Source: Ostreococcus lucimarinus (taxonomy: Eukaryota). Taken from it: 64,000 bases of DNA. Positions 1,584 to 37,235 of the stretch are shown one piece after another. The stretch lies in NCBI GenBank assembly GCA_000092065.1, contig CP000581.1; one strand, given 5' to 3'. The notes beneath the pieces were generated by a model. That model ran no database searches. It saw nothing but the letters and a program-made list of their open reading frames with translations, and was not told where the DNA came from. Numbering within the stretch: position 1 is the first letter of the stretch; every line of letters starts with the position of its first letter. The position numbers were made by a program, and so were the translations under genes.

Positions 1584-1842
1584 GCGCGCCGTCGTCGCCG
1601 TCACCATCGCCGTCGACGCGAACGCGCGACACCGCGCGCGCGCCGCCTCGACGGCGCCCGTCGACGACTCGCGCGCGCGCGCGGGCGCGAGCGCGGCGCG
1701 CCGGACGACGCGCGACGTCGTCGCGCGCGCGGACGCGAGCGCGCGGCGCGCGACCGCCGCGAGCATGACGCGACCGAGTCTGCAGACGCGGTCGCGGCGA
1801 CGGCGACGGCGACGGCGACGACGGCCGGCGACGGCGCGCGCG

Positions 1843-2853
1843 ATGGCGCACGTCGCGCTCGCGCTCGTCGCGCTCGTCGCGCTCGCGCGCGCGACGACGC
1901 GGGACGAGGGCGAGGCGCTGCGACGCGCGGAGGACGCGCGCGCGGCGGAGCGGCGCGGGCGAACGACGGCGGAGCGCGCGCTGCGCGAGGCGCGCCTGGA
2001 GCTCGAGCGCTGCCGACGAGCGATGGACGCGCGCGGAGGCGCGACGCGAGCGAGGGCGTCGACGTCGCACGAGATGATGGCGATGGGGACGTTCGCGAGC
2101 GCGTTCGATCGAAGGCTGGGGACGCCGCGGCAACCGTCGCTGGTGCCGCTGGCGCGAGGACGCGTCGAACTCGACGCCCGGGTGCCGGCGAGCGCGCTGG
2201 AGGGATTGGACGAGTTCACGCACTGTTGGTTGGTGTACGTGTTTCATGAGAACACGGATCTGGGCGCGGGGGCGGAGAAAAATGGGAAAGTGGGCGCGGC
2301 GGATGGGCCGAAATCGACGCTTCGCGGGAAGATTCGGGTGCCGAGATTGAACGGGGAGAAGCGAGGGTGCTTGGCGACACGAACGCCGCATCGACCGTGT
2401 CCGATAGGACTTAGCTTAGTGCGAATCGTTCGCGTGAATGGGAAATCGTTGGACGTGGCGGGGGCGGACTTAGTGCACGGGACGCCGGTTTTGGACGTAA
2501 AACCATACGTGCCGTACAGCGATTGCGTCGTCGACGCTCGCGCGCCGGAGTGGGTCGGAAACGATCTCGCCGATGGTGACGGACCGTTGACCGTAGATGA
2601 AGTGAAACTTACGGACGCCGGCGAGGCTGCTTTGCGCGCGGCGTGGGAGCGTCGGCGCAAAGATTCACTGTACGAAAGCGCCGACGAATTCGTCGCGTTT
2701 GTGACGCAGGCGCTCGGGCGAGACATTCGGTCGTATCACCAGCGCTTGGGCGATGTTGCGCCAGACACGGATTGGCGCGTAAGTTTAGATGGTGTTATCG
2801 TCGTGTACCGTCAGTCAGCGAAGCGCGTGGTCGTCGTCGGGGCTGAAAACTAG
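1843..2853 (+). CDS. TRMO: tRNA (adenine37-N6)-methyltransferase TrmO/TsaA family (YaeB/UPF0066)
   Basis: The C-terminal 230 aa align to E. coli YaeB: RQPSLVP~[17 protein letters not shown]~[38 protein letters not shown]~[41 protein letters not shown]~GTPVVDIKPYLPF. The start was chosen at the in-frame M (MAHVALAL) after the GC-rich low-complexity tract. An alternative M lies at about 1765. Confidence 0.75.
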   Translation: [336 protein letters not shown]

Positions 2854-14186: not shown

Positions 14187-15557
14187 ATGCTTTCGACGAC
14201 CATCACCACCCCGAGCGCTTTCGTGAAGCCGCAAGCGCCGCGAACGCGCGTCAAGGCGCGCGCCGACAGCACCATGGCCCCGCCCACGACGCGCGTGCCG
14301 CCGAGAAACCCCGAAGGTGCGCGACGGCGCGATCGATGCGCGCCGACGCGATGTCGTGGTTTATCCAGTGCGATGGGTGACGATGACGACGCGTGTGACG
14401 GCGTGCGATGCGTGAACGACGCGATGGGGATGAGAAAGGATGTGAAATGATATCGATCGCCGCGAAACGCGTCGACGCGGGCGAACGCGATGACTGACGA
14501 GTGTGGATGACGATTGATTGCTCCAGGCGCGCCGACGGTGGTGCCGCAAGATTTGCCGAGCCGACCGCGACGCAACCGCCGCTCGCCGACGGTGCGAAAG
14601 GCGTTCCGCGAGACGATTCTCACGCCGGATAACTTCATTTACCCGATTTTCGTGCACGAGGGCGATGAGAACATTCCCATCGGTTCTATGCCGGGACAAG
14701 ACCGCCTGAGCTTCAAGAATGGCATGATCAAGCAAGTGCGCGAGGCGCGCGCGGCCGGCGTGAACCAAGTGGTCGTCTTCCCGAAGACCCCGGATAACTT
14801 GAAGACGGCTTGCGGGAAGGAGGCGTTCAATCCGAACGGCTTAGCCCAACGCTCGATCTCGTTGTTGAAGGATACGTTCCCCGATTTGGAAGTGTACACC
14901 GACGTCGCGCTCGATCCGTACAACACTATGGGCCACGACGGCATGGTGCGCTCCGACGGCGTCGTCATGAACGACGAAACGGTGTACTATTTGTGCCAAC
15001 AAGCCGTGTCCCAAGCGCGCGCGGGTGCTGATGTTATTTCTCCGTCCGATATGATGGATGGTCGCGTCGGTGCCATTCGCCAAGCGCTCGACGACGAAGG
15101 TTTCACCAACGTCGCCATCATGAGTTACACCGCCAAGTACAACAGCGCGTACTACGGTCCGTTCCGTGATGCCTTGGCGTCGGCGCCGCGTCCGGGTAGT
15201 GAAGACTGGAAGATTCCGAAGGACAAGGCTGAGTACCAAATGGACCCGGCCAACTACCGTGAGTGCTTGCGCGAAGCTGCTCTCGATGAACAAGAGGGCG
15301 CGGACATCATGATGGTCAAGCCGGCGGGCGCCTACTTAGACATCATCCGCGCGCTTAGAGACAGCACCACGCTCCCAATTTCCGCGTACCAAGTGTCTGG
15401 CGAATACTCCATGTTGAAGGCTGCCGCCGCGGCGGGTTACCTTAACGAACGCGATGCGGTCTTGGAATCCTTGATCGCCATCAAGCGCGCCGGAGCCGAC
15501 TTGACGTTAACGTACTATGCCATCGATGCCGCCAAGTGGATCCAAGAAGGCAACTAA
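14187..15557 (+). CDS. HEMB: Delta-aminolevulinic acid dehydratase (porphobilinogen synthase), Mg-type, with a transit peptide encoded on a separate 5' exon: join(14187..14316,14527..15557)
   Basis: Exon 2 is unmistakable ALAD: PRRNRRSPTVRKAFRETILTPDNFIYPIFVHEGDE..., DVALDPYNTMGHDG in place of the Cys-rich Zn site (so plant/plastid Mg-type), and the active-site Lys region MVKPAGAYLDII. Exon 1 reads MLSTTITTPSAFVKPQAPRTRVKARADSTMAPPTTRVPPRNPE, which is Ser/Thr/Arg-rich and transit-peptide-like. Donor G|GTGCGC at 14317; acceptor TGATTGATTGCTCCAG| ending at 14526. The join is in frame and gives ...NPE-G-APTVVPQDLPSRPRRNR, as in plant ALADs. Confidence 0.8.
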
Positions 15558-15795: not shown

Positions 15796-16549
15796 TTAGT
15801 AGAAGTAGCCGAGCACCTTGCCACCAACCTTCTTGCGACGGGCCTCCTCGTGGTCCATGATGCCCGACGACGTGGTGAGCACGATGACACCAAACAAACG
15901 AGAGGGCAAAAGTCGACCAACCCAGTCCTCAAGGTCGTGGTGGGACAAATCATAACGCGGGCTACGAGTTTAAAACCATTCATCGTCAGTCTCCGAGTCT
16001 TAATCGACGTTTAAAGAAGACGCGCTTCTCGACGAGCGTTCGCGCAGACCCTAAAACACACGCACCTGATGACGCCGCACTTGTTGATACGTCCGTTAAG
16101 CTCAACGACGATCTTTCCCGCTCTGTGATCATCAATGAACTCGAATTCGTTGATGTAGCCTATTCGTTGTAAACCATTCCGTCGTCAGTCTCCACATTCA
16201 TCCTGTGATGCGCGCGCCGCTTTCAGGATCGTTCGCGCGCGTCCCGCTCGCGTTCCCCTCTCTTCACACGTACCGTGCTTTTGCATCACTTGCAAGAACT
16301 TGATCACCACCTTGGAAACCGGGCGCACGAGCACCTGACGCTTCCCACGCTTTTCCGCGTTGTACATCGACTCTGCAGAGCGCGCGAACACGATCGATCG
16401 CGAGGTTAGTCACAGACCCTAAAACACCACAGCGCGAGGACGCGATTCGGCGCCGTCGCGACACGCGCGACGTCGCGACGCGTCATAACGCGCGTGCGAA
16501 CGATGATAGACGTACTGAGAGTGTCATTCAAGACGCTGATTCGGACCAT
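15796..16549 (-). CDS. RPS15A: 40S ribosomal protein S15a (uS8), 4 exons: complement(join(15796..15961,16066..16159,16274..16372,16516..16549))
   Basis: Not in the ORF track as one unit. The spliced translation is [130 protein letters not shown] (130 aa). It is colinear with human RPS15A (130 aa) at about 70% identity. Donors: A|GTACGT, G|GTACGT, AG|GTGCGT. Acceptors: TCTGCAG|, CGAATAG|, CTCGTAG|. Exon lengths 34+99+94+166 = 393 nt, and all phases are consistent. Confidence 0.9.
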
Positions 16550-16679
16550 GGCGCTTGTCTCTTGACCGCACGCGTCGTCTAAAGGCGGATGCGACTGGCC
16601 GCGCGAGGGCTTTCGACTTCGTGGTCCGTGTGGCAAGACCGACATTAGGGCTTTCAGCGCTTTCGAGGCCGTCGGGCGT

Positions 16680-17972: not shown

Positions 17973-19901
17973 CTAGTACGCGTTGGAAAACGCGGTATTC
18001 GCGCGCCCGTCGAGATGGCGAGGACTTTCACCGCTCGTCAACGCGGTGTACATGGACGGCTCCGCGGCGGGCTGTTTTGGATTCGGCGCGGCGGCGCCCG
18101 ACGCCGTCGGAGGAAGACCAGACTTCTTCGCAAGCTTGGCAGATACTTCGTACTTCATCGTCGGCTTTATGGCCATATGGAACTGCGCTTCAAGACCGGC
18201 AAAGGAGCCAAAAATCATGTCAGCCAAGGGCATGAGCATCCATTGCACTTGGCTCACGAGTTGCCACCACATTGGCGCGACGTTGCACTCGAAGTGTTCT
18301 CTGTCGTGAATGACGAAGAGACGAATGTAAAATTCACTGATGATGATGGCCCAGCACGCAAACGTCATCGGAAAGAACGCTACTACGGTGAGAGAGCGTA
18401 ACCCAATTCCAAATGGATACGTCTCGAGCACTGGGTTCGCCCAAGTCGAGCATAAACCGCCCAACATGCACGTAAACCAAAAGAGAGTCCACGAAATGTG
18501 GTGCTCCGCCGCGTGCACGTACAGCTTCATCATCCGCGTGAATGAAACCTTGTCTCGTCTCTCTAAGTAATTCATCACGATGTACGACAGATCGATCGCC
18601 CCCCAGGCGTGTCTTTTGGCTTGAATGTATCGAGCCTTAATGGCCTCATTCCATGACCGCTCTTCGATGGCATCGTTGCCCATCACCATGAAGATGGGCA
18701 CAACGCGGTAATCACCATCCTTTTTAAACCAGCACTTTAAATAGTGGTGCCAATCTTCGGGGATGATATCCACATCCCAACCACCGCACTCGATGGACGT
18801 TCTGAGACTTTGCGAATAAATCGCAAATGGGAACGGATGACTAAACGGCGACGCGAGTTGACCGAGGAAACCGACGCTATCAATCACAGCCTTGATACGA
18901 ATGAGAATCGGTACGTTCCAAATGTTCGGGAAAAAAGTCTCCGCAGCCTGGTACGTGGTGTTGTACGGCTTTGGATTTTGCACGTGATTATACGCCAAGC
19001 AGTCCATGAACTGCGAGTCAAAGTACGTATCCGCGTCGCACACCGTGAGCATAATTTGCTCCGGCGCCAATCCGCGCTTCTCCACAAACTCTCTCTTGAC
19101 GCATCGAACCGACCACGCACAGTTCGAACTTTTCCCGACCGCCTCGCCTGCGCCGAGCACGTGCTTGGTGTAATACAGTCCCAGGAGCGACGACCCGAAC
19201 TCGTCGATTAGTTCTCCCACCTTGGCCGGCGCCTCGGTGTCTCGACTCTCCGTCGCGAGTACGACGATTAATCGCTCTTTCGCACACGTCTGCGTCGCCA
19301 ACGTCCCTACAGTCTTACGCAGTGTCCCGAGAGGCTCTTTGTACGTGGGAATCACGCACACATGGATGATATCGTTAAACTTATCCGTGAGTCCGCGCTT
19401 CAACTTCCCGTCCACGCCGCTCGTCCACGTGTGCTCGTCGTCCCCAACCAACGTCGGTTTTTCGTTCGCCTTGTACACCTGTCCGGCGCCGCCAAAGAAC
19501 CTATCGTAACACGGTGATTTCAACGTTCCATCGTTTCCGAGTCGATGCCAATCCGCATCCTTATACGTGTGTAACAACGGAATCCCAACCAGCAACGCCG
19601 CGAAGCCGCTGTGAATGCCTTTCACCCACCCATAACAAATGTACGCGCAGATGAACGCCACCGTCAGCGCTGGGCTCAGGCGCGCCCCCCACAGCAAAAC
19701 AAACGTAATCAGCGTCATGCTCATCGCGAATGGCAGCGTGAACATCACCCGTTCCAACGCTCCGCCGCGGTACGCGATGTTGTCCCGAAGATCCTCGCTC
19801 GCGTCGTCGAGCAACGCGGCGTCGCCGACGTCCATCGAGCGCACTTTCGGGCGCGCGAGGGCGTCGGAGACGACCAAGCGCACTCGCGTCGATCGAGTCA
19901 T
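17973..19901 (-). CDS. Family-2 membrane glycosyltransferase (Glyco_trans_2_3-like; processive beta-glycan-synthase-like)
   Basis: TM helices flank a cytosolic GT-A domain: VCDADTYF (DxD), QAKRHAWG (QxxRW-like), and a C-terminal multi-TM pore region (TLFWFTCMLGG..., FFPMTFACWAIIISEFYIRLF). The substrate is unknown. Confidence 0.6.
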   Translation of the reverse strand: MTRSTRVRLVVSDALARPKVRSMDVGDAALLDDASEDLRDNIAYRGGALERVMFTLPFAMSMTLITFVLLWGARLSPALTVAFICAYICYGWVKGIHSGFAALLVGIPLLHTYKDADWHRLGNDGTLKSPCYDRFFGGAGQVYKANEKPTLVGDDEHTWTSGVDGKLKRGLTDKFNDIIHVCVIPTYKEPLGTLRKTVGTLATQTCAKERLIVVLATESRDTEAPAKVGELIDEFGSSLLGLYYTKHVLGAGEAVGKSSNCAWSVRCVKREFVEKRGLAPEQIMLTVCDADTYFDSQFMDCLAYNHVQNPKPYNTTYQAAETFFPNIWNVPILIRIKAVIDSVGFLGQLASPFSHPFPFAIYSQSLRTSIECGGWDVDIIPEDWHHYLKCWFKKDGDYRVVPIFMVMGNDAIEERSWNEAIKARYIQAKRHAWGAIDLSYIVMNYLERRDKVSFTRMMKLYVHAAEHHISWTLFWFTCMLGGLCSTWANPVLETYPFGIGLRSLTVVAFFPMTFACWAIIISEFYIRLFVIHDREHFECNVAPMWWQLVSQVQWMLMPLADMIFGSFAGLEAQFHMAIKPTMKYEVSAKLAKKSGLPPTASGAAAPNPKQPAAEPSMYTALTSGESPRHLDGRANTAFSNAY

Positions 19902-25610: not shown

Positions 25611-26984
25611 CTACAACATAGGAATATACGCAGGCAAAGCTTCAGTCCCGGAGTAATCGGGACTATAATCATCGTCTGATTTAGGCAAAGTTCGTTTATG
25701 CTCGTGAAGGAGCTTCATAATGCGCTCTTTAAGCTCATCGATTCCTCGACCTTCGTCGGCACTCGTCGCGGTCGCGTTTGGAATTTGCGCCATCGCGCGT
25801 TCAGCCTCCTTAACGTCCTCTTCGCTCCATAACTCTTGCGTATCCGGGTCTGTCTCACCTCCTAAAACCGGTACTAGTGCCGACTTGGAGAAGACGTCGA
25901 TCCACGGTCGACGCTCGGCGAATTGTTTGTAGAGCTCTTCTCTGAGCTGCAACTGGTCGTCGATGGACGTGCCCGATAGCCCGGTTAAATCGGTGACGAA
26001 AATCACGCACGTCGGCAAGTGCTCCAACGTCGCGATGGTGAGCATTTCAATTTTATTTCGATCGGCCTCCGATCGATTAATCAAGCCCGGGGTGTCCGTG
26101 ACCACGTGTCGCTCGTCGTCGACGAAAAAGTGCCCCATCTTGATGCCCTTCGTCGTGAACGGGTAGTTACACACTTCCGGCAATCCACTAGACAGCACGC
26201 GCACCAACGAGCTCTTCCCCACGTTCGGTGCACCGACGAGCGCGACTGTGGGCGTCTCGAGCTCCGCCACCGGAAGCTTCCGGAGCAACTTGGCGATGGA
26301 TTTCAAATCGTCCACGCACCTCGCGTACTTTCTGTAATACGCCTCCATCTCCGCGAACCCCTTCTCTCGCATCTCTTCCGCCTCTTTCAGCGCCGTCGTC
26401 TTCGTGACTTGCGACGCGTACCCTTTACCTATCCCAAGCATCCCCTTCCGCATCGAATCCACCGCCGCGAGCGTCGTTCTATACTTTTTATCGCTCAGCG
26501 TCAGCTCCAACAGCGCCCGCTCAAACGGGTGCAACCGCTCCGGCGGCGGAAACCCCTTCACGTACTCCTTCAACGGTTTACACACCCCCGTCGTCAGCGC
26601 GTCGAGTTGTTTCGCGCTCTTATTCCTCTCCCTCGCCGCATCCTTCAATCCCCGCGTCGGCGTCACCCGTCCCGCTCGTTTCACCGCGCTCGCGATCAAT
26701 TGCTCCGCGGGCGACACGTTCGGCAACCGCCCGAACGCTCCCGGCCGGTGCGCTCGCCTCGTCGTCGCCGCCACCGTTTCGTCCGTTCGCGCGTCCGCGT
26801 CTTCGTCCTCGCGTCCGCGCTCGCGCGGTTCGTCGCGCGCGTCCCTCGTCGACGTTCCCGCGTCGTCGCGCGCGTCGCCGCCGCCACCGCGCGCGCGCGT
26901 CGTCGTCGTCGTCGTCGCGCGTCGCGCTCGCGTCGTCCACGGTCGTCGCGACAGCGCGCCGGCGATCGCGCGCGCCGTCGCCAT
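25611..26984 (-). CDS. NOG1-family GTPase, short organelle-type (archaeal/plastid NOG1-like) with an N-terminal extension
   Basis: NOG1 N-domain followed by a G-domain: LVGAPNVGKSSLV (G1), NYPFTTKG (G2), DTPGLINR (G3), plus the NOG1-type EDRNKIEMLTIATLEHL. There is no long NOGCT tail; total 457 aa. The N-terminal 90 aa are R/T-rich and transit-like. It resembles plant plastid NOG1-like GTPases; that comparison is from recall, not an alignment. Confidence 0.65.
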   Translation of the reverse strand: MATARAIAGALSRRPWTTRARRATTTTTTRARGGGGDARDDAGTSTRDARDEPRERGREDEDADARTDETVAATTRRAHRPGAFGRLPNVSPAEQLIASAVKRAGRVTPTRGLKDAARERNKSAKQLDALTTGVCKPLKEYVKGFPPPERLHPFERALLELTLSDKKYRTTLAAVDSMRKGMLGIGKGYASQVTKTTALKEAEEMREKGFAEMEAYYRKYARCVDDLKSIAKLLRKLPVAELETPTVALVGAPNVGKSSLVRVLSSGLPEVCNYPFTTKGIKMGHFFVDDERHVVTDTPGLINRSEADRNKIEMLTIATLEHLPTCVIFVTDLTGLSGTSIDDQLQLREELYKQFAERRPWIDVFSKSALVPVLGGETDPDTQELWSEEDVKEAERAMAQIPNATATSADEGRGIDELKERIMKLLHEHKRTLPKSDDDYSPDYSGTEALPAYIPML

Positions 26985-27075
26985 CGCGATCGCGCGCGCC
27001 GTCGACGCGTCGCGCCGTGCCGACGCCGTCGACGCGGCGCCGTCGCGCGCGAATGAATCGGCGCGCGGCGACCGA

Positions 27076-27095
27076 CCTAAACCCTAAACCCTAGG
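27076..27095. promoter_or_regulatory. Two tandem telo-box / interstitial telomere-like repeats (CCTAAACCCTAAACCCTAGG)
   Basis: Seen directly. They lie in the 314-bp divergent promoter between the NOG1-like GTPase (start 26984, minus) and the PP2C (start 27299, plus). The AAACCCTAA telo-box is an established plant cis-element of translation and ribosome-biogenesis genes. Confidence 0.6.
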
Positions 27096-27298
27096 AAGCC
27101 CTCATCAGGCGAACGCGACCGACCGACCGACCGACGGACGGCGCGACGGCGCGACGCGTCCGACGACGCCGCAGACGCGCGCGGCGTCGACGCGCGCGGC
27201 GAAACGTCGAAAAAAACGCGCGTTCGCGATCGACGCGCTCCGAGGCGGCGCGAGCGACGCGCGCGCGACGGGAAGGCGCGATCGGAGACGCGATTGGA

Positions 27299-28273
27299 TT
27301 GGCGACGCGATCGAGCGAACGACGCGCGATGGCGACGCGAGTGCGCGCGAGCGACGCGGGAACGGCGCGCGCGATGCGGGTGAACGCTTGGAGATCGCGC
27401 GGACGCGGCGGTGGGGGGGTCGGGACGACGCGAGGAGGCGCGAGAAGGGCGAGGGGAGGGACGGCGGCGCGCGCGGCGGCGACGAGGTTGGAGGTTTCGA
27501 GCGCGGGGGCGATTTTAGTGCCGCATCCGGATAAGGCGGATAAGGGCGGCGAAGACGCGTGCTTCGTGTTGAAGCAAAGCGGTGCGTTCGGGGTGTTCGA
27601 CGGCGTCGGAGGATGGGCGGAGGAGGGGGTGGATCCGGCGGAGTATAGCGAAAAGTTTGCCGAGAAATCCGCGCAGAGCGTGTTGGCGGGACAACGCGAC
27701 CCGGTCGCGGTGATGAGGGACGCGCACGAGGCGACGCAGGTGATCGGTTCGTGCACGGCGTGCATCGCGGTGTTGAAAAATGGAAACGTGCTGGATATCG
27801 CGAACTTGGGCGACGCCGGGGCGTTGGTTTCGCGCGACGGCGGCGTGGTGTTTCACACAAAGTCGCAACAGCACGAGTTCAACTTGCCGTATCAGCTCGG
27901 CTGGACGAAGGTGTATCCCGAAGGCGATCGCCCGGACGCGGCGGATCGCGTCGAGGTAGAGATGAAACCGGGCGATGCCGTCGTTTTGGGGTCGGATGGT
28001 TTATGGGACAACGTGCCGTACGCTGAAGTCGCGGCGCTGTGCGCCGAGCACCAAGGCGACGCCGAAGAGTGCGCCGAGGCCATCGCGACGCTCGCGTTCG
28101 GTTACTCTTGTGATCCCGAGTACGACTCGCCTTTCACGCAAGAAGCGCGAAAAGCGGCGGAGGGGAGACCGGAATGGGCCGATAGAAGAAACTTGATTGG
28201 TGGGAAGATGGACGACATCGCCGTCGTGTGCATGTTCGTAGAAGCTTCGCGAGGTTTGAGCGGTGGGACTTAG
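27299..28273 (+). CDS. PP2C-family protein phosphatase (PTC7 / SpoIIE-like PPM)
   Basis: EDACFVLKQSGAFGVFDGVGGW (PPM motif DGxGG), ...LGSDGLWDNV and a C-terminal MDDIAVVCMFV (metal-binding Asp). N-terminal 75 aa are Arg/Gly-rich and look like a targeting sequence. Confidence 0.75.
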   Translation: MATRSSERRAMATRVRASDAGTARAMRVNAWRSRGRGGGGVGTTRGGARRARGGTAARAAATRLEVSSAGAILVPHPDKADKGGEDACFVLKQSGAFGVFDGVGGWAEEGVDPAEYSEKFAEKSAQSVLAGQRDPVAVMRDAHEATQVIGSCTACIAVLKNGNVLDIANLGDAGALVSRDGGVVFHTKSQQHEFNLPYQLGWTKVYPEGDRPDAADRVEVEMKPGDAVVLGSDGLWDNVPYAEVAALCAEHQGDAEECAEAIATLAFGYSCDPEYDSPFTQEARKAAEGRPEWADRRNLIGGKMDDIAVVCMFVEASRGLSGGT

Positions 28274-28349
28274 AGGCATTTTTAAAACTTCAAATCGCGA
28301 CATAGACTACAATCATCTGCTAAACTAACGTCGCCTCAACGACGTCGCT

Positions 28350-29432
28350 TCACGCAAGCTCGTCGTCGAGACCGCGCACGAGGAGCATGAACCACAGAGC
28401 GCTCGTGAAACTCTTCTCTTTAATCGTCATCGTCAACGCGCCGGCGAGGACGGTTTTCACGAGCTGCGCGTCGAGACCTTTGTACATACCACTCACGCCT
28501 TCTTCTCTGTGCACTCGCTTGAGCGTGCCTAATAGCGAACGTCTATCTTCCTCGCGCGTTCCCGCCTTTTGCAAAACCTTGGCGCGCACGAGAGGGTACG
28601 TCAGCATCGTCGCCGTCGCCTTGGACGCGGCGCCGAGGACAAAGGCGTCAAACATCGACAACTCCACGACGGGCTTTAAGATCCCACGCCGCTGCGCGCG
28701 AGCGTTGTGCACGATCATCAACTTTTGACGAAGTTGCTCGAAGACGGTGTATTGAATCGCGGGATTGATCGTCAGCGCGAGTGAAGCGCCGAGACCGCTA
28801 TACAATCCGCCGCGCGCGTCGGCGGCGCCTCGTCCGCCTCGCAACGCTCGTAAAGTGTTTTTGAACCCATCATCGCCCTCGTCGTCATCGAACGCCTTTG
28901 AGCCAGTATCACCGACCGTTTTCTTTCCTTCCAGTTGTTTCCGCGTCGTGTACGTATCTAAAGGCTCCGTGACGAGCACGTTACAGCATCCCGCCGCCGC
29001 CGCCGCCGCGAGCGTCGCCCCCACCCCAATCTTTTTCCCCGTTCGCTCCTCGTACGTCCGCTTCAGCGCGCTGAACGCTAAAAAGTACAAAAAGCTCGAC
29101 GAAAGCGAATGTGCCGACTTCGCCAACGCCCCACCGTACGCCCCCGCCGCGCCTTCCTCGCGAAACACCCGCGCCAACTTTGTCACCCACTGGGGACACC
29201 AAAAACCGTTACCGTCGTCGTCGGCTTCCGAGTTGTTTCCGCGCGCCGCGCTCTCGGCCTGGATCCGCGTCTTCACCGTGTCGATCGGGTATAACGCGAG
29301 CGTGCCGAACAATCCGCCGAGCGCGCCTGCGAACGCGCGCGTCGTCGTCAGTCGCGCGGTTTCGTCGGAAGCGATCGAGCCGTGCGAACGCGTCGAGCCG
29401 TCGAGACGCGCGCGGCGCGACGCGAGACGCAC
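28350..29432 (-). CDS. Mitochondrial carrier family (SLC25) protein
   Basis: Three tandem approximately 100-aa repeats, each with the PxD/ExxK/R-type signature (LYPIDTVKTRIQ, EPLDTYTTRKQ, TYPLVRAKVLQ) and 6 TM helices. Confidence 0.8.
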   Translation of the reverse strand: MRLASRRARLDGSTRSHGSIASDETARLTTTRAFAGALGGLFGTLALYPIDTVKTRIQAESAARGNNSEADDDGNGFWCPQWVTKLARVFREEGAAGAYGGALAKSAHSLSSSFLYFLAFSALKRTYEERTGKKIGVGATLAAAAAAGCCNVLVTEPLDTYTTRKQLEGKKTVGDTGSKAFDDDEGDDGFKNTLRALRGGRGAADARGGLYSGLGASLALTINPAIQYTVFEQLRQKLMIVHNARAQRRGILKPVVELSMFDAFVLGAASKATATMLTYPLVRAKVLQKAGTREEDRRSLLGTLKRVHREEGVSGMYKGLDAQLVKTVLAGALTMTIKEKSFTSALWFMLLVRGLDDELA

Positions 29433-29591
29433 CGGCCAAGGCCTCGACGAGGATCTTATCGTTCGACGTGAGCTTGCTCGACGCCTTGATGACGGACGTC
29501 GTCGGCGTCGGCGTCGACATCGCGAGAAGAGCGTGGAGAAGTGCGGCGCGGCGCGACGCGACGGGCGACGCGGAGGAAGTCGACTCGTGGA

Positions 29592-29766
29592 ATATTATAT
29601 TGAAAAGCTTACTTGAGGAGGAGTTCGGCGCATTGCACGGCGTTTAAGGCGGCGCCCTTCTTGATTTGGTCACCACACACGAACAAATCCAAGCCCTTGT
29701 TGTTGGGCTGGGAGATGTCTTGACGGATGCGACCGACGTAGACGTCGTCGTTATCCGTGGCGTCGA
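29592..29766. repeat. Repeat A: a 175-bp, 100% identical duplicate of the ASADH 3' coding end plus its downstream 32 bp (original at 36001..36175)
   Basis: Compared base by base: atattatattgaaaagcttacttgaggaggagttcggcgcattgcacggcgtttaaggcggcgcccttcttgatttggtcacc...ccgtggcgtcgag is identical at both places. The minus-strand ORF 29609..29839 ends with the same 47 aa as ASADH ([51 protein letters not shown]). Confidence 0.9.
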
Positions 29767-29791
29767 GACACGCCGTAACGCGTCTGCGCGC

Positions 29792-30419: not shown

Positions 30420-33400
30420 ATGGACGAATCGACGCCGTTGATCGGGCGGCGACGGGAAGGGAGACGCGGCGCGCGCGGCGCGCTCGTCGTCGGCGCGCTC
30501 GCGTGCGCGTGCGGAACGCTCGTGGCGTTGGCGAATTGCCCGCACCTGGTGTCGACACTCTCACGGGCGATTGGTGTTGGAGACGCGGACGGCGCGGGTG
30601 CGCGCGGGGTGAACGCGGTCTTCGCGCGCCTCGGTGCGGTGTGGGGACGCGATGATTCTGATTACGTGTACACGTCGCTCGAACGTGATTTACTGCGCCC
30701 TCACGAAGACGACGATGAAATCGAAGACGAAATCGACGAAATTGACGCCGACGCGAAGGACGGAAAGGTTGCCGAACACACTTCGACAGACCAACTGCAC
30801 GGTCGAGGAAACGAAGGCTTGGCAAAGGTCGCAACTCTGGGCGAGCCCGCACTTCCGACCGATTTGCCGCCGTCACGCGCGTTGGCGACGCTCGACGAGA
30901 TTGAAGCTGTTTTACTGGGCAACTGGCGAAAGTGGACGCGCTTGGACGTCGTGCGCGGACGCGCTGAACTGGAAACCGTGCGAGATAAACTCGCTGCTCT
31001 CGTTGGTGATGACGTGAATGAAACAACTGTCGCCAACTCTGCCGCAGAGGTGACAAACGAGACGTCGTTTATTTCTTGCAAGGCTGAACAACTCGTACGT
31101 GAAATCCTGAGTGAGTACGGCGGCGCACCCAAACTTCTACTCCCAAAATTGTTGCGCTTCATTTTCCACGACGCGGTTGACGAGAACAACTTATTAATCC
31201 AAAAGGATGGAGGCTATGTACCGTTTAGGGCACCAACTGGCTCGATATACGGCGGTTTGGACCTTTGCCTTTACTCTCCCCTGACGCATGGAACGTCTGG
31301 GAAACCAGACCCTGGGCATAACAGAAATGTTCGAATGAACCGCGAGGTTATCAAATTGTGTGACGCTGTCTGTAAAGATTTGAATACTGGTTTATGTGAA
31401 CTGCAGAATGATAAACCTAAACGGTGCTATACGGACATGTTAGCGTTTAGTTCCATAATCGTTCTGGAGAAGCACTCAAAGCTTAGTGCCCCATCTTCAA
31501 TGGTTTGGGGAAGGCGAGGCGGTGAGTGTGGCAACAGCATCGTTACACCATTTACCAAAAGCAGGGAGAAGCTTGAATCCTACGTTGGAAAACCTGCGCT
31601 GAACTTTGCGCCGGCGCTTCATGCCATGGACGATCCCGGCACCTTCTCGAGAGTCTTTGCAAAACTTGGATTTACGCCTTCAGAGCACGTCGCGTTGATG
31701 GGAGCTCACAGTGTGGGTAAAATTTCACCATGCGCGAGTGGACTCAACGGTATCGAAAAAGGTAACTTTTGCCCGATGAAGAAGCGATATGATCCACCCA
31801 TCGAGATAGGGAATGAATCCCCACAGTGCCAGCCACAAAAACACGTTCAGGGCAACTGTTGGAAACCCTCTGGACCGAAGTCTTATGCCACTCCGTATTA
31901 CTACTTCTTTCGTGGTGGGAGAACAGGGTACAAGACCGGCTTCGCCGACGGTGGGGTTTGGGATCACACGCCTGATTCGCTTGACAATCAGTATTACAAG
32001 TTGATGTACGACGAAGACTATGGGGGACGCACTAAGTGTTGCGGGAAAAAGAAGAATGGCGGTTGCCATCGGGGTGGGCAACCAGTCGACAGGGAAACTG
32101 GGAGAAAACTCCCTTTTTCCTCATTATGCAACATAAATTGGTGCCGCTCAGACCGCAAAGGTAGGACACACATGAAGTCTACAAAAGCTTGGGTCGAACC
32201 CAGACATTCGCTCTTAAAATTGCCCTACTTTCGCGGAACCATCGTGAAAATGATAAGACTTGCCGGTGATTGGGCTCTTCTCGGGAACAATGAAACACAA
32301 TCGATTCTGAAGCGTTATGCAGAAGATGAAAACGAATTCCATTCCAATTTTGCGGTGGCCTGGGATAAGGTGTTACGGAAGGGGTACTTCCTTGACGAGC
32401 TGAAAACGTGTTCGAACGTGTCAGGACCGAAAGATGCGCAACTTCTTACTCGCCTAAGGGAGTACCAAGCTGCACTGTCGGCCAAACGCGCCAAACGCGT
32501 GGCCAAAAATGCACGACGCGCCGGGGTCGAAGCCGAAAGTTCTGACCAAACATCGAATCTTGGAGATCAAAGTTCACACAACAAACTTGGACAACAAAGT
32601 TCAGCACAAGAAGATGCAACCACAGATAAAACACTGCAAGTTGCAACGGCAACCATGGATGATGCGAAGTACGACGACGGGCTTGACACTGCAACGAACG
32701 CATCGGATCTCGAGCAAGTTGTACCAAAGTCAATTTCAACGACCATTCAACATTGTGATAAGTTCAATGTGCTTGGTCTCGTCAAACACATCCGGTCAGA
32801 GATACAGAAGCTCCCTCGAGATACTACACCTCTTGCGATAGGGCAAGAGCTCACTGCGGCGAGAGACGTAGTCATGGGACAAAACGTACAGATGAGCGAG
32901 CCGACGCCTGCGCCTGCGCCCACACCTACGCCGACGCCTGCGCCTGCGCCTGCGCCTGCGCCTGCGCCTGCGCCTGCGCCCACACCCGCACCTTCGCCAG
33001 GAGTGGAGCAAAGCGACGAGTCCAGCAACGAAGATGGAGGTGACGCGAAAATCTACAGCTTGGAGCACGCAGGCGCACGGTGCGTAGGGCTGCCTCGTGC
33101 CAAGCGAGTGAAGCGAACGCGCAGTGTGGAGGAGTGTGCTGAGTTGGTGAAAAAACGTGGGCACCTCCACTTTGCCTTCCTCCGCAACACCGTGTGCTTG
33201 GAGCAGCCAAAACCGTGGAGCAAATGTCGTCGCATTCGCAAGGGCCGATTTGATCTTTACAAGATCAAAGCAGAGCCTGCGCCTCCTGCGCCTCCGCCTG
33301 CGCCTCCTGCGCCTCCTACGCCGTCTACGTGGTCGTCTACGTGGTCGTCTACACCTTCCACTTACAGTTACAGTGCAGCGACATGCAAGCGCGATCGTGG

Positions 33401-34619
33401 CAAGTTCGTTGATGGGAAATGCTGGCATATGGCTACGACTGACACATCTTGTGAAGAGACATGTGCTGACAAAAATCTTCAATATGATGAGGGCACGCAC
33501 CTGGGCTCGCCGAAGAACCCTGAGACCTGGGACAAGTGTGTGGCTGTCGCCCAGATGTTTAAAAAGCAGGCAAGGACGAATGGGCCAGCGATCGGCGGGG
33601 GTGGTGGCTGTGGCTGTTCAGTCTTTAAGATTCCTGTTTACGGTACGAATGATGCAGTTCGCCTGAGTGGCGCCAATACTACGAGCCCCGAGTGTTGGAA
33701 GATGGGCCCAATCCAAGCACGTCTCTGCGCATGCAAACCAGCATCAGCTGTTGGCGCAAGTTGCACCTCTTCCTCAAGCTGCTTGAACGCTTATTGTAAG
33801 TCAGGCGTTTGCACGAGTTTTTTGGCCCAGAACAGTGCATGCACCGAGCACGCTTCGTGCGTGACAGGCTATTGCTCACCAACGGAACGTAAATGCACGA
33901 CGGTGTCATGGAAGTCACAAAAAGGCGCGTATGCCAAAAAGTACTATAACGCTGGTAAAAAGAAATTCAGGGTTATGCCAAAACAGAAGAACGTACCTGA
34001 TTGGGAGGCGATGACGACGTTTCCAAAGGGTTTTTGTATCGGAAATGACAGCGCCGGTTGCTTGATAGCACGCGGTGTCAACCGCCAGAAGACGATTCAA
34101 AAAGCCAAACAGCGTTGTGCGTCGTCTGAGGAATGCGTGGCTGTTTGGTGTTGCGCAACAGGATGTCCAGCCACGACGTGTCATGCAGTCAAGACTAGAA
34201 CTCCAAATTACGCGGCGAACGATTGCCCGCTCTTTCCTGGAAGCTTCCGCGAGACCAAATACCCGGCTACGTTCTATACTAAAGACACGGAGGGCGCTCA
34301 AGTACACGAGTCACCGCGAAACATCGTGACGGAAGTGGACATTGCTGCGAGTGCCGATGAAGGGGAAAACATGTACAGTCGGATAAAAGGAGGGAAAAGA
34401 AGGAAGGTAGACGCAAAGCAATGCCCCTTACAAAAATTGAAAGCGCACACCTTGGACGAGTGCGCTGAGATGGTGAGGGAACACGGAAGCCTTCACTTTG
34501 CCTTCGGACATAAAAGGTGCTTTTTGGCCAAACAACCGTGGAGCGAATGCGAGACGAGCCATGGCAAGTATGATCTTTTTCAAATCGACGAACACGCACG
34601 CGACGACGATGAAGATTGA
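30420..34619 (+). CDS. Giant secreted/membrane-anchored plant-type (class II/III-like) heme peroxidase fused to Pro-Ala/Pro-Thr mucin-like linkers, Cys-rich modules and two PAN/Apple-like domains (1399 aa)
   Basis: N-terminal hydrophobic anchor (ALVVGALACACGTLVALANC). Peroxidase motifs: LLRFIFHDAV (distal His, R..FHD), ALMGAHSVG (proximal His), DSLDNQYYKLM (FDNxYY). (PA)n and PxxP linkers are encoded by (CCTGCG)n at 32904..32990 and again at 33275..33350. Two approximately 60-aa repeats, ...SVEECAELVKKRGHLHFAFLRNTVCLEQ... and ...TLDECAEMVREHGSLHFAFGHKRCFLAKQ..., have PAN-like Cys spacing. Additional Cys-rich (EGF/GCC-like) segments are present. Confidence 0.7.
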   Translation: MDESTPLIGRRREGRRGARGALVVGALACACGTLVALANCPHLVSTLSRAIGVGDADGAGARGVNAVFARLGAVWGRDDSDYVYTSLERDLLRPHEDDDEIEDEIDEIDADAKDGKVAEHTSTDQLHGRGNEGLAKVATLGEPALPTDLPPSRALATLDEIEAVLLGNWRKWTRLDVVRGRAELETVRDKLAALVGDDVNETTVANSAAEVTNETSFISCKAEQLVREILSEYGGAPKLLLPKLLRFIFHDAVDENNLLIQKDGGYVPFRAPTGSIYGGLDLCLYSPLTHGTSGKPDPGHNRNVRMNREVIKLCDAVCKDLNTGLCELQNDKPKRCYTDMLAFSSIIVLEKHSKLSAPSSMVWGRRGGECGNSIVTPFTKSREKLESYVGKPALNFAPALHAMDDPGTFSRVFAKLGFTPSEHVALMGAHSVGKISPCASGLNGIEKGNFCPMKKRYDPPIEIGNESPQCQPQKHVQGNCWKPSGPKSYATPYYYFFRGGRTGYKTGFADGGVWDHTPDSLDNQYYKLMYDEDYGGRTKCCGKKKNGGCHRGGQPVDRETGRKLPFSSLCNINWCRSDRKGRTHMKSTKAWVEPRHSLLKLPYFRGTIVKMIRLAGDWALLGNNETQSILKRYAEDENEFHSNFAVAWDKVLRKGYFLDELKTCSNVSGPKDAQLLTRLREYQAALSAKRAKRVAKNARRAGVEAESSDQTSNLGDQSSHNKLGQQSSAQEDATTDKTLQVATATMDDAKYDDGLDTATNASDLEQVVPKSISTTIQHCDKFNVLGLVKHIRSEIQKLPRDTTPLAIGQELTAARDVVMGQNVQMSEPTPAPAPTPTPTPAPAPAPAPAPAPAPTPAPSPGVEQSDESSNEDGGDAKIYSLEHAGARCVGLPRAKRVKRTRSVEECAELVKKRGHLHFAFLRNTVCLEQPKPWSKCRRIRKGRFDLYKIKAEPAPPAPPPAPPAPPTPSTWSSTWSSTPSTYSYSAATCKRDRGKFVDGKCWHMATTDTSCEETCADKNLQYDEGTHLGSPKNPETWDKCVAVAQMFKKQARTNGPAIGGGGGCGCSVFKIPVYGTNDAVRLSGANTTSPECWKMGPIQARLCACKPASAVGASCTSSSSCLNAYCKSGVCTSFLAQNSACTEHASCVTGYCSPTERKCTTVSWKSQKGAYAKKYYNAGKKKFRVMPKQKNVPDWEAMTTFPKGFCIGNDSAGCLIARGVNRQKTIQKAKQRCASSEECVAVWCCATGCPATTCHAVKTRTPNYAANDCPLFPGSFRETKYPATFYTKDTEGAQVHESPRNIVTEVDIAASADEGENMYSRIKGGKRRKVDAKQCPLQKLKAHTLDECAEMVREHGSLHFAFGHKRCFLAKQPWSECETSHGKYDLFQIDEHARDDDED

Positions 34620-35836: not shown

Positions 35837-36017
35837 TTCCAATCATCATCCACTCGCGCCTCGGCCGACGCCATCGGCCGCGCGACGCCTCTGCGTTCGT
35901 CAACGACGACACAGCACGCACGACAATTACAATAAGTTTAATATGAATGACACGCACTTACGCCGACGAGGGGAGACGATCGACGCGCGCGCGCGCGCGA
36001 ATATTATATTGAAAAGC

Positions 36018-37235
36018 TTACTTGAGGAGGAGTTCGGCGCATTGCACGGCGTTTAAGGCGGCGCCCTTCTTGATTTGGTCACCACACACGAACAAATCCA
36101 AGCCCTTGTTGTTGGGCTGGGAGATGTCTTGACGGATGCGACCGACGTAGACGTCGTCGTTATCCGTGGCGTCGAGCGGGGTGGGGAAACGGTTGGCGGC
36201 GCGATCGTCGATGATGGAAACGCCCGCGGCGGAGGACAAGATTTCTTTCGCCTTGACTTCATCGAGCGGGTTCTTCAACGTCAAGTTGATGGATTCCGCG
36301 TGCGCACGCATCACCGGCACCCGAATGCACGTGGCGGTGATGTTGACGTCTTTGAAGTCCCAAATCTTTCTCGTCTCCTTGACCATCTTCATCTCTTCCT
36401 CGTTGTAACCATTCTCCGTCATCGGGGCGTTGTGAGAGAACAAGTTGAACGCATACTGCCACTGGAAGATTTCCATCGTCTTGCACTCACCGTCGTTCAC
36501 CACTTCTCTCGTTTGTTGCTCCAACTCCTTCATCGCGAGCGCGCCGGCGCCGCTCGCCGCTTGGTACGTCGACACGACGATACGTTCGACGCCCACGGCG
36601 CGGTGAATCGGCGTCACCGCCATGAGCGCGATGATGGTGGAGCAGTTCGGGTTCGCGATGATCCCAGCCTTACCACCGAGCTTCAAGTGCGCCATGGCTT
36701 CCGGATTCACCTCCGGAATCACCAACGGCACCCCATCCGTCATGCGAAACGCGCTCGAGTTATCCACCACGAAGCACCCCTTCTCCACCGCCACCGGTCC
36801 AAACTTTTTCGAGATCGACCCCCCCGCGGAGAACAACGCGATATCTTGCCCATCGAACGAGCTCTCCGTCAGTTCCTCCACGACGTACGTCTCGCCGTCG
36901 AAATCCACCTTCGACCCCGCGCTTCGCGCGCTCGCCAGCATCTTCATCTCGCTATACGGAAAGTCCCTCTCCTTGAGCACGCGCAGGAACTCCTGTCCGA
37001 CCGCGCCCGTGATTCCCGCGATGACCACCTTCGGTCCGTCCGCCGTTCGCTTCGCCTCGACGCGCACCGCCCCTCGCGTCCCGCGCGCGCCCCGCGCGAT
37101 CCTTTTCGTCGTCGCTTTCAGCGCGTTCGCGTTCGCGATTCGCGCTCTCGCGCTCGTCGTCGCGCGCATCGTCGTCGTCCGCTCGTCCCTCGTCCCTCGT
37201 CGGCGCTCGTCGCGGCGCGTCGGCGTGTGTCGCAC
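36018..37235 (-). CDS. ASD: Aspartate-semialdehyde dehydrogenase with an N-terminal transit-like extension
   Basis: VVIAGITGAVGQEF (Rossmann fold), GIIANPNCSTIIALMAVTPIH (active-site Cys), ...YQAASGAG... and the C-terminal [19 protein letters not shown]. The first 70 aa are R/T/A-rich. Confidence 0.85.
   Translation of the reverse strand: MRHTPTRRDERRRGTRDERTTTMRATTSARARIANANALKATTKRIARGARGTRGAVRVEAKRTADGPKVVIAGITGAVGQEFLRVLKERDFPYSEMKMLASARSAGSKVDFDGETYVVEELTESSFDGQDIALFSAGGSISKKFGPVAVEKGCFVVDNSSAFRMTDGVPLVIPEVNPEAMAHLKLGGKAGIIANPNCSTIIALMAVTPIHRAVGVERIVVSTYQAASGAGALAMKELEQQTREVVNDGECKTMEIFQWQYAFNLFSHNAPMTENGYNEEEMKMVKETRKIWDFKDVNITATCIRVPVMRAHAESINLTLKNPLDEVKAKEILSSAAGVSIIDDRAANRFPTPLDATDNDDVYVGRIRQDISQPNNKGLDLFVCGDQIKKGAALNAVQCAELLLK

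Follow-up and report, generated by a model that had tools for sequence, protein, structure and literature searches.

Here, we describe a short tandem run of telomere repeats found in a 64,000-nt stretch of the Ostreococcus lucimarinus genome (assembly GCA_000092065.1, contig CP000581.1), referred to below as the window. The run lies in a 344-bp divergent intergenic spacer (26985..27328) that separates the start codon of a NOG1-family GTPase from that of a PP2C-type phosphatase, and its make-up identifies it as a short interstitial telomeric repeat, that is, a tandem telo-box of 2.6 units set within (GACC)n in a putative divergent promoter. A sequence-only reading of the same DNA had singled out the 20-mer CCTAAACCCTAAACCCTAGG as a tandem telomere repeat or telo-box, and an exact match search confirmed it at 27076..27095 on the plus strand, where it is the sole copy in the window; the positions 26985-27298 that were attached to it are the bounds of the intergenic spacer and not those of the motif.

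The core of the feature is CCTAAACCCTAAACCCTA (27076..27093, plus strand), an 18-nt run that a phase scan showed to be in perfect telomere phase over 2.6 CCCTAAA units. It includes AAACCCTA twice (at 27079 and 27086) and AAACCCTAA once (27079-27087), with the C-rich strand (AAACCCTA) in the sense of the PP2C gene and the G-rich strand in the sense of the GTPase gene. With up to two mismatches allowed, CCTAAACCCTAAACCCTAGG was matched in none of 100 dinucleotide-preserving shuffles, and a chance origin of the 18-nt run was rejected on this basis. A lone AAACCCTAA is not significant by itself, because at least one copy appeared in 18 of the 100 shuffles; it is the tandem run that is significant. 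The run had been placed 90-110 bp upstream of the NOG1-like gene, which agrees with the 92-111 nt measured from the GTPase ATG; on the PP2C side, the distance is 234-253 nt to the ATG (27329) and 204-223 nt to an upstream TTG (27299). In plants, a telo-box is defined as AAACCCTA(A) lying 0-280 bp from the ATG, a description that the run fits (PMC3022908). The telomeres of Ostreococcus are indeed of the TTTAGGG type that had been anticipated from the motif (PMC3318450; PMC8287931 Table 1).

Words of this kind are scarce in the window. Telomere-like words of at least 8 nt occur at only four places in the 64 kb, namely two introns of the ribosomal protein gene RPS15A, the tandem run itself, and a coding site at 31223. 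The hexamer CCCTAA/TTAGGG is found at eight sites. Non-coding DNA makes up approximately 12% of the window and accounts for five of these sites, of which three are in or beside RPS15A, the only cytosolic ribosomal-protein gene of the window.

The surroundings of the run are themselves repetitive. The spacer has a G+C content of 74% (26985-27298), and a repeat search revealed two plus-strand copies of an exact 10-nt direct repeat, GCGACCGACC, that bracket the run together with a variable segment. The left copy spans 27068..27077, and the right copy (27115-27124) runs on into a (GACC)n/(GACG)n microsatellite, giving a feature of 27115..27141. To examine variation, we aligned the window with 11 other O. 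lucimarinus-type contigs that had been chosen via an identical protein (L001 and L089-L098; n = 12). The segment adjoining the run (27094..27111, plus strand; GGAAGCCCTCATCAGGCG in the window) is polymorphic for indels, with five length variants that include an 11-bp deletion in L001 and L090. This is by far the most variable of the three indel sites in the alignment, the other two being single indels. A resemblance between AAGCCCT, which stands beside the run, and AAAGCCCT upstream of RPS15A was considered and dropped, as AAGCCCT is confined to the window strain and the other contigs read GAACCCT.

The order of the PP2C and GTPase genes is kept in the Ostreococcus lineages examined, with the exception of one at 69% identity that has lost it, which allowed the same spacer to be compared across the genus. 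The run is perfect in all 12 O. lucimarinus-type contigs and its core, TAGGGTTTAGGGTTTAGG, is identical in every one; its end reads CCCTAGG in the window only and CCCTAAG in the other 11, in which the telomere phase continues for one more base while the window alone has C at that place. A sister lineage, represented by five contigs from different samples (L125-L129; GTPase 93% identical), carries the same 19-mer, CTAAACCCTAAACCCTAGG, in all five contigs, on the opposite strand and inside (GGTC)n, which flanks the run on both sides there as it does in the window. The run keeps its distance from the GTPase ATG (-91 versus -103 in the two lineages). The two spacers share only 68% identity (248/363) with several indels, and the inverted 19-mer is the longest exact word that they have in common in either orientation; the flanks of the run in the sister lineage are unrelated to those in the window, and length polymorphism again occurs directly beside it. 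Thus, the run is non-random, fixed in the species, and base-perfect but flipped in the sister lineage. If sites decay independently and the alignment is correct, the probability that 18 of 18 bases would be kept at 68% identity is approximately 0.68^18, or about 0.001. The persistence of a perfect 19-mer through a strand flip in a diverged spacer is hard to reconcile with neutrality.

A second line of evidence comes from the gene for cytosolic ribosomal protein S15a (RPS15A; 15796..16549, minus strand; exons 16549-16516, 16372-16274, 16159-16066, and 15961-15796). Its spliced product is 99% identical to a 130-aa protein (P0188) that shares a 90% cluster with P0443, the RPS15A of O. lucimarinus/O. 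tauri, and the clusters of RPS15A and of ALAD, which is also encoded in the window, both hold O. lucimarinus entries. Motifs similar to the telo-box had been claimed for the RPS15A introns, and they are present in introns 1 and 3: ACCCTAAA occurs at 16416-16423 (intron 1) and 16048-16055 (intron 3), each time within the identical 15-mer CAGACCCTAAAACAC. In the sense strand of RPS15A, both elements read GTGTTTTAGGGTCTG. The intron 1 element (16413..16427, minus strand) precedes the 3' splice site by approximately 50 nt, with the branch point TGACTAAC following shortly after it; the intron 3 element (16045..16059, minus strand) directly follows the 5' splice site and is kept in three Ostreococcus lineages.

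When the RPS15A locus of the window was compared with those of O. tauri, an Ostreococcus lineage at 81% identity, Micromonas pusilla, and M. commoda (L109/L110, L115-L117, L121, and L122), TTAGGGT emerged as the sole word of at least 5 nt common to intron 1 in all five Mamiellales lineages (three of Ostreococcus and two of Micromonas). It is always situated 33-50 nt before the 3' splice site, and a shared 7-mer arose in none of 20,000 shuffles, while the remaining intron sequence has diverged between the lineages; in M. pusilla, the element is the full TTTAGGGTTT. Judging from these alignments, a ribosomal-protein gene does hold a telomere-like element under constraint. Upstream of the gene, AAAGCCCTAAT (16644..16654, minus strand) was identified by cross-lineage comparison approximately 100 nt from the RPS15A ATG, together with the related GAAAGCCCTCG (16604..16614, minus strand), and two other Ostreococcus lineages have AAAGCCCTAT about as far upstream, in inverted form in O. 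tauri. In its general form, AAAGCCCTA(A/T)T, the element stands approximately 100 nt upstream of the RPS15A start codon in the window, L109, and L115, which represent three Ostreococcus lineages; the O. tauri copy is inverted. We take this element to resemble the fungal Tbf1-type site ARCCCTAA. The transcript contigs that were recovered covered RPS15A only; they were chimeric or merged with neighbouring transcripts, and no start site was obtained from them.

Related elements occur in more distant loci; over all loci, the ribosomal-protein evidence comprises one gene family and one neighbour. A set of Bathycoccus-like contigs (L081 and L083-L088; GC 0.49) has the same RPS15A-ALAD-ELF1 synteny, and in three diverged lineages among them GACCCTAATGGA is conserved close to the start of RPS15A intron 2, in the orientation opposite to that of the Ostreococcus element. 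Two of the Bathycoccus-like lineages additionally share TGGGCCCTAG later in the same intron, which contains a site II-like TGGGCC. In M. pusilla, RPS14 is divergent from RPS15A and has AAGCCCTAAA in a 65-nt intron (L121 1400-1470, minus strand); the sense strand there reads CACAAGCCCTAAAGCG, and RPS14 is thereby the second ribosomal-protein gene whose intron holds a telomere-like word. The spacer between the two M. pusilla genes contains GTAGGGCTAC. One metagenome scan, made with RPS15A, yielded for the most part transcripts without introns and unrelated eukaryotes, the useful loci being the Bathycoccus-like ones and L013, a plant-like contig (GC 0.38) with three copies of AAACCCTAA within 70 nt (137-204), approximately 150-220 nt upstream of its RPS15A match. 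The arrangement in L013 is the one classically seen in plants, and the contig was taken as a positive control for the approach.

Of the two genes that flank the run, the GTPase (457 aa; 25611..26984, minus strand) has NOG1_N, MMR_HSR1, and NOG1 domains, and no NOGCT domain was found in the 457-aa protein. Its best solved relative is archaeal PH1320 (357 aa), matched over residues 83-427, whereas yeast Nog1 aligns with it only up to residue 293 of 647. The protein falls in a 90% cluster with XP_001415822 of O. lucimarinus CCE9901, and its 82-aa N-terminal extension, rich in Arg, Ala, and Thr, could reflect organellar targeting. Our literature search found nothing usable on the function of the plant GTPase PDE318/At1g80770. 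The PP2C-type phosphatase (314 aa; 27329..28273, plus strand) was assigned by domain match and synteny, and gene callers on near-identical contigs give a 314-aa protein that matches the ATG at 27329. Transcript ends that could place a start site were also sought, with the result that the P0002 contigs all break in the 5' coding part of the GTPase gene and none reaches the spacer. These ten metagenome contigs (L099-L108; 351-aa P0002 product) end in the GC-rich 5' coding region, in a zone of (GTC)n-type low complexity at approximately 26750-26950 of the window that appears to be a systematic assembly break.

Tandem runs are not confined to this spacer. In approximately 150 kb of non-redundant Mamiellales sequence (an estimate from locus lengths), we found three further independent runs of approximately two or more units. 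In O. tauri (L109/L110, 4463-4478), TTTAGGGTTTAGGGTT lies in the divergent spacer between ALAD and ELF1, with GATGGA direct repeats on either side; this run sits among three copies of a repeat of approximately 47 nt. In one Bathycoccus-like lineage (L085 2590-2618 and L086 4785-4813), the ALAD/ELF1 spacer contains CCTAAACCCTAAACCC..ACCCTAAAC beside (GAA)15. The third, GGGTTTAGGGTTAGGGTTTAGG, comes from a Mamiellales lineage with a GC of 0.68 (L006 1146-1167 and L007 1152-1173). The ALAD/ELF1 spacer of L081 (approximately 2829-2848) holds TTAGGGTTGTACACCCTAA, a TTAGGG-N7-CCCTAA palindrome, and no telomere-like run was found in that spacer of the other Bathycoccus-like lineages. Tandem runs are thus recurrent and evolutionarily labile; they lie mostly, although not exclusively, in divergent promoters and extend beyond translation genes. 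ALAD adjoins ELF1 in O. tauri, the 81% lineage, and the Bathycoccus-like contigs but not in the window, where it appears to begin with a short 5' exon (ATG at 14188) separated by an intron of approximately 210 nt from the long open reading frame (ORF) at 14688-15557, the region concerned being 14188-14530.

Two further observations concern other parts of the window. An exact duplicate of approximately 200 nt, comprising the 3' end of an aspartate-semialdehyde dehydrogenase gene and downstream sequence, is present at 29590-29790 and 35999-36200 and brackets a 1399-aa ORF (30420-34619) with a weak peroxidase domain. In strain L001, which is 99% identical, that slot holds an unrelated 401-aa ORF without BLASTP similarity; it is a strain-variable gene cassette. 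In addition, the genes for an organellar-type ribosomal protein L35 (1266-1766, minus strand) and a TrmO tRNA methyltransferase (1765-2853, plus strand) have divergent longest ORFs with a 2-nt 5' overlap; therefore, these ORFs, as drawn, must contain the true starts or the promoter.

Taken together, the sequence evidence leads us to predict that the run is an orientation-independent binding site for a telomere-repeat-binding factor, a proposal whose chances we regard as about even; a regulatory role is likely but unproven. This reading is favoured because the 19-mer was kept perfect through a flip and because the RPS15A word is under constraint. The run would have arisen in the common ancestor of O. 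lucimarinus and the sister lineage, through telomerase or error-prone repair at a break in (GACC)n, along the lines of the Lescure model for plant telo-boxes. It may then have been kept as an orientation-independent site for a Myb-type factor that binds double-stranded telomere repeats. Such a factor would be TRF/Tbf1-like rather than TRB: the origin of TRB has been placed in the Klebsormidiophyceae and the family described as streptophyte-specific (PMC10167121), so that TRB is not a candidate if the published phylogeny holds. The same factor could recognise the deeply conserved TTAGGGT in the RPS15A introns, and the run might thereby link the GTPase gene, the PP2C gene, or both to the programme of growth and translation.

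A number of observations weigh against this proposal, and several of them are also expected of a neutral repair scar, in which a break in the fragile (GACC)n tract was mended by a few repeats that telomerase templated, by slippage, or by template switching, and left a sequence of no regulatory function whose promoter position reflects only open, break-prone DNA. We consider a neutral scar less than even in probability, although still a serious contender. The run and the hexamer CCCTAA/TTAGGG were not found in the syntenic spacer of four other Ostreococcus lineages, with GTPase identities of 81% (L002/L003), 79% (O. tauri, L008), 76% (L130), and 75% (L004/L005). The run is therefore not an old conserved part of GTPase gene control, and the empty site in these congeners is what a scar predicts. 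Its invariance within the species is uninformative about constraint, because the whole spacer is nearly invariant among the 12 contigs and these were picked via an identical protein. Orientation is not maintained: AAACCCTA follows the sense of the PP2C and not that of the GTPase in the window, and is flipped in the sister lineage. The spacer (26985-27328, both strands) contains no site II (TGGGCY), no TEF1 box, and no TATA, and site II was also not found in the sister-lineage spacer.

The genes concerned fit the expectation only in part. With no NOGCT domain, PH1320 as its closest relative, and an alignment with yeast Nog1 that stops at less than half the length of the yeast protein, the GTPase is a short archaeal-type Nog1 paralogue and not the nucleolar NOG1 orthologue, which has NOG1_N, a G domain, NOG1, and NOGCT in approximately 640-660 aa. 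What is conserved in RPS15A is TTAGGGT(C/T)T, read as GACCCTAA from the opposite strand, and not AAACCCTAA, which weakens the telo-box claim for these introns. Elsewhere, the genes beside the tandem runs (ALAD and ELF1) are not translation genes, and the L006/L007 run is not in a promoter at all, as it occupies a 128-nt spacer between the stop codons of convergent genes. The earlier suggestion that the plant regulatory logic is conserved in this alga is partly supported, by the constraint on TTAGGGT in RPS15A and the perfect run in a sister spacer of 68% identity, and is weakened by the four lineages without the run, the missing site II and TEF1 partners, the flipped orientation, and the non-translation neighbours of the other runs.

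The structure of the locus also speaks for repair. A break-repair origin fits because of the microsatellite, the direct repeat, the border indels, and the empty sites in congeners, and the run bears the marks generally associated with interstitial break repair, namely perfect units joined head to tail, an orthologous site that is empty in relatives, a flanking direct repeat, indels in both lineages, and a repeat context. The microsatellite, direct repeat, and border indels are suggestive and no proof of mechanism; they would suit a scar without function as well as a retained site. The scar explanation gains further from the unrelated flanks and different orientation of the run in the two lineages, from the GATGGA repeats and 47-nt repeats around the O. 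tauri ALAD/ELF1 run, from the 3'-3' position of the L006/L007 run, and from a telomerase/recombination model for telo-box spread that has been published for plants (PMC3022908). It does not readily account for the retention of the same 19-mer, with its length, phase, and non-telomeric end, at 68% spacer identity, which is unexpected for neutral DNA, and two independent insertions that yielded the same 19-mer are unlikely. Moreover, related single units are constrained in the RPS15A introns, and for this reason the cell appears to read the telomere word.

It is also conceivable, though improbable in our estimation, that the run is functional in another capacity and not an activator of translation genes, for example as a chromatin or boundary (e.g., Polycomb) element, or as a single-stranded G-strand bound by POT1 during transcription. 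In Arabidopsis, TRB1-3 recruit PRC2 and JMJ14 via teloboxes (PMC11287191), and O. lucimarinus POT1 (OlPOT1) binds single-stranded GGGTTTAGGGT tightly (PMC2794166), the 11-mer that it prefers most and that the run contains exactly; the tandem runs next to genes of unrelated function point the same way. However, TRB is reported to have arisen only in streptophytes (PMC10167121), and the association with RPS15A and RPS14 points to the translation programme.

Finally, the C-strand word resembles a telomerase RNA template, and PMC8287931 (Table 1) gives no identified telomerase RNA for O. lucimarinus, only six candidate loci of which none showed homology. The run might accordingly be imagined as the template of an unannotated telomerase RNA gene on the plus strand, an idea that we rejected and regard as having next to no likelihood. 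No upstream sequence element (USE; CCCRTAA) is present within 200 nt upstream on the plus strand, where the nearest copy is at 19629, and the TATA that might accompany such a gene is missing from the spacer. An Rfam search of 26000-28500 with E values up to 1 gave only two chance-level matches. The 344-bp spacer must also house two promoters, and at 18 nt the run is far longer than the minimal template (approximately one repeat plus one nucleotide) that is used in gene searches. The surroundings are not conserved either, since the sister lineage has the run inverted in unrelated sequence and other congeners are without it.

A broader claim is also conceivable: telomere-factor control of ribosomal-protein and ribosome-assembly genes may predate plant TRB and be present in the Mamiellales. 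We put this forward tentatively and with some doubt. Such control would take two forms, a conserved single intronic TTAGGGT and young tandem telo-boxes that are seeded by telomerase at promoter microsatellites and kept by selection in either orientation. A selectively retained telo-box in a prasinophyte, together with the conserved intronic element and a related one in Bathycoccus-like contigs, would imply that the coupling of the telomere word to translation is older than TRB and uses another factor, as fungi do with Tbf1. The telomere-ribosome link of plants and fungi would then be ancestral, or would have been reinvented repeatedly by the same route, and the idea would be directly testable in a transformable alga with a 13-Mb genome. 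Nature has already provided an experiment, as the same 19-mer is present in both orientations in sister lineages and the site is empty in the transformable O. tauri.

Among known systems, the closest comparison is with the telo-boxes of Arabidopsis and rice, which occur on the 5' side of genes for ribosomal proteins, translation factors, and ribosome biogenesis (PMC3022908; PMC1794593). As in those plants, the word is the organism's own telomere unit and lies in the 5' flank within 0-280 bp of the ATG. A tie to translation-related genes is likewise suggested, here to a Nog1-family GTPase and elsewhere to RPS15A and RPS14, and simple repeats stand alongside, as they do in plant 5' untranslated regions ((GACC)n at this locus and (GAA)15 in the Bathycoccus-like lineage). 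Unlike the plant elements, the run has no site II or TEF1 partner and consists of 2.6 tandem units instead of the usual 1.1-1.3, the constrained RPS15A copies are intronic, with the core TTAGGGT(C/T)T, and orientation is not fixed. Plant telo-boxes are read by TRB-type Myb proteins or AtPur-alpha, and the TRB proteins are reported to be specific to streptophytes (PMC10167121). The telobox Polycomb elements of Arabidopsis share the same gene-proximal DNA word, although that system is repressive and depends on TRB (PMC11287191), itself reported from streptophytes only (PMC10167121).

Interstitial repeats inserted at breaks offer a second comparison. In vertebrate genomes, short interstitial telomeric sequences have been inserted by telomerase at double-strand breaks. 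The present run has their perfect head-to-tail units, an empty site in relatives, direct repeats, and local instability, but, unlike them, it is still perfect although its orientation has flipped between diverged lineages, and this suggests use.

The fungal Tbf1 systems, which belong to another kingdom and another telomere unit, may be linked to the present case by analogy alone. In Saccharomyces cerevisiae, clustered TTAGGG works with Tbf1 without rules of orientation or spacing, and in Candida albicans Tbf1 is found only at ribosomal-protein loci, at a TTAGGGN6CCCTAA palindrome (PMC2834713). The likeness lies in the telomere word at ribosomal-protein genes and in the N7 palindrome TTAGGGTTGTACACCCTAA of L081. 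Our literature search found no report of promoter telo-boxes from Ostreococcus or other Mamiellales. The feature is thus of a known kind, a telo-box-type interstitial telomere repeat, and what is new is its occurrence in a prasinophyte; its most notable points are the inverted, perfect copy in the sister lineage and the conserved intronic TTAGGGT in RPS15A.

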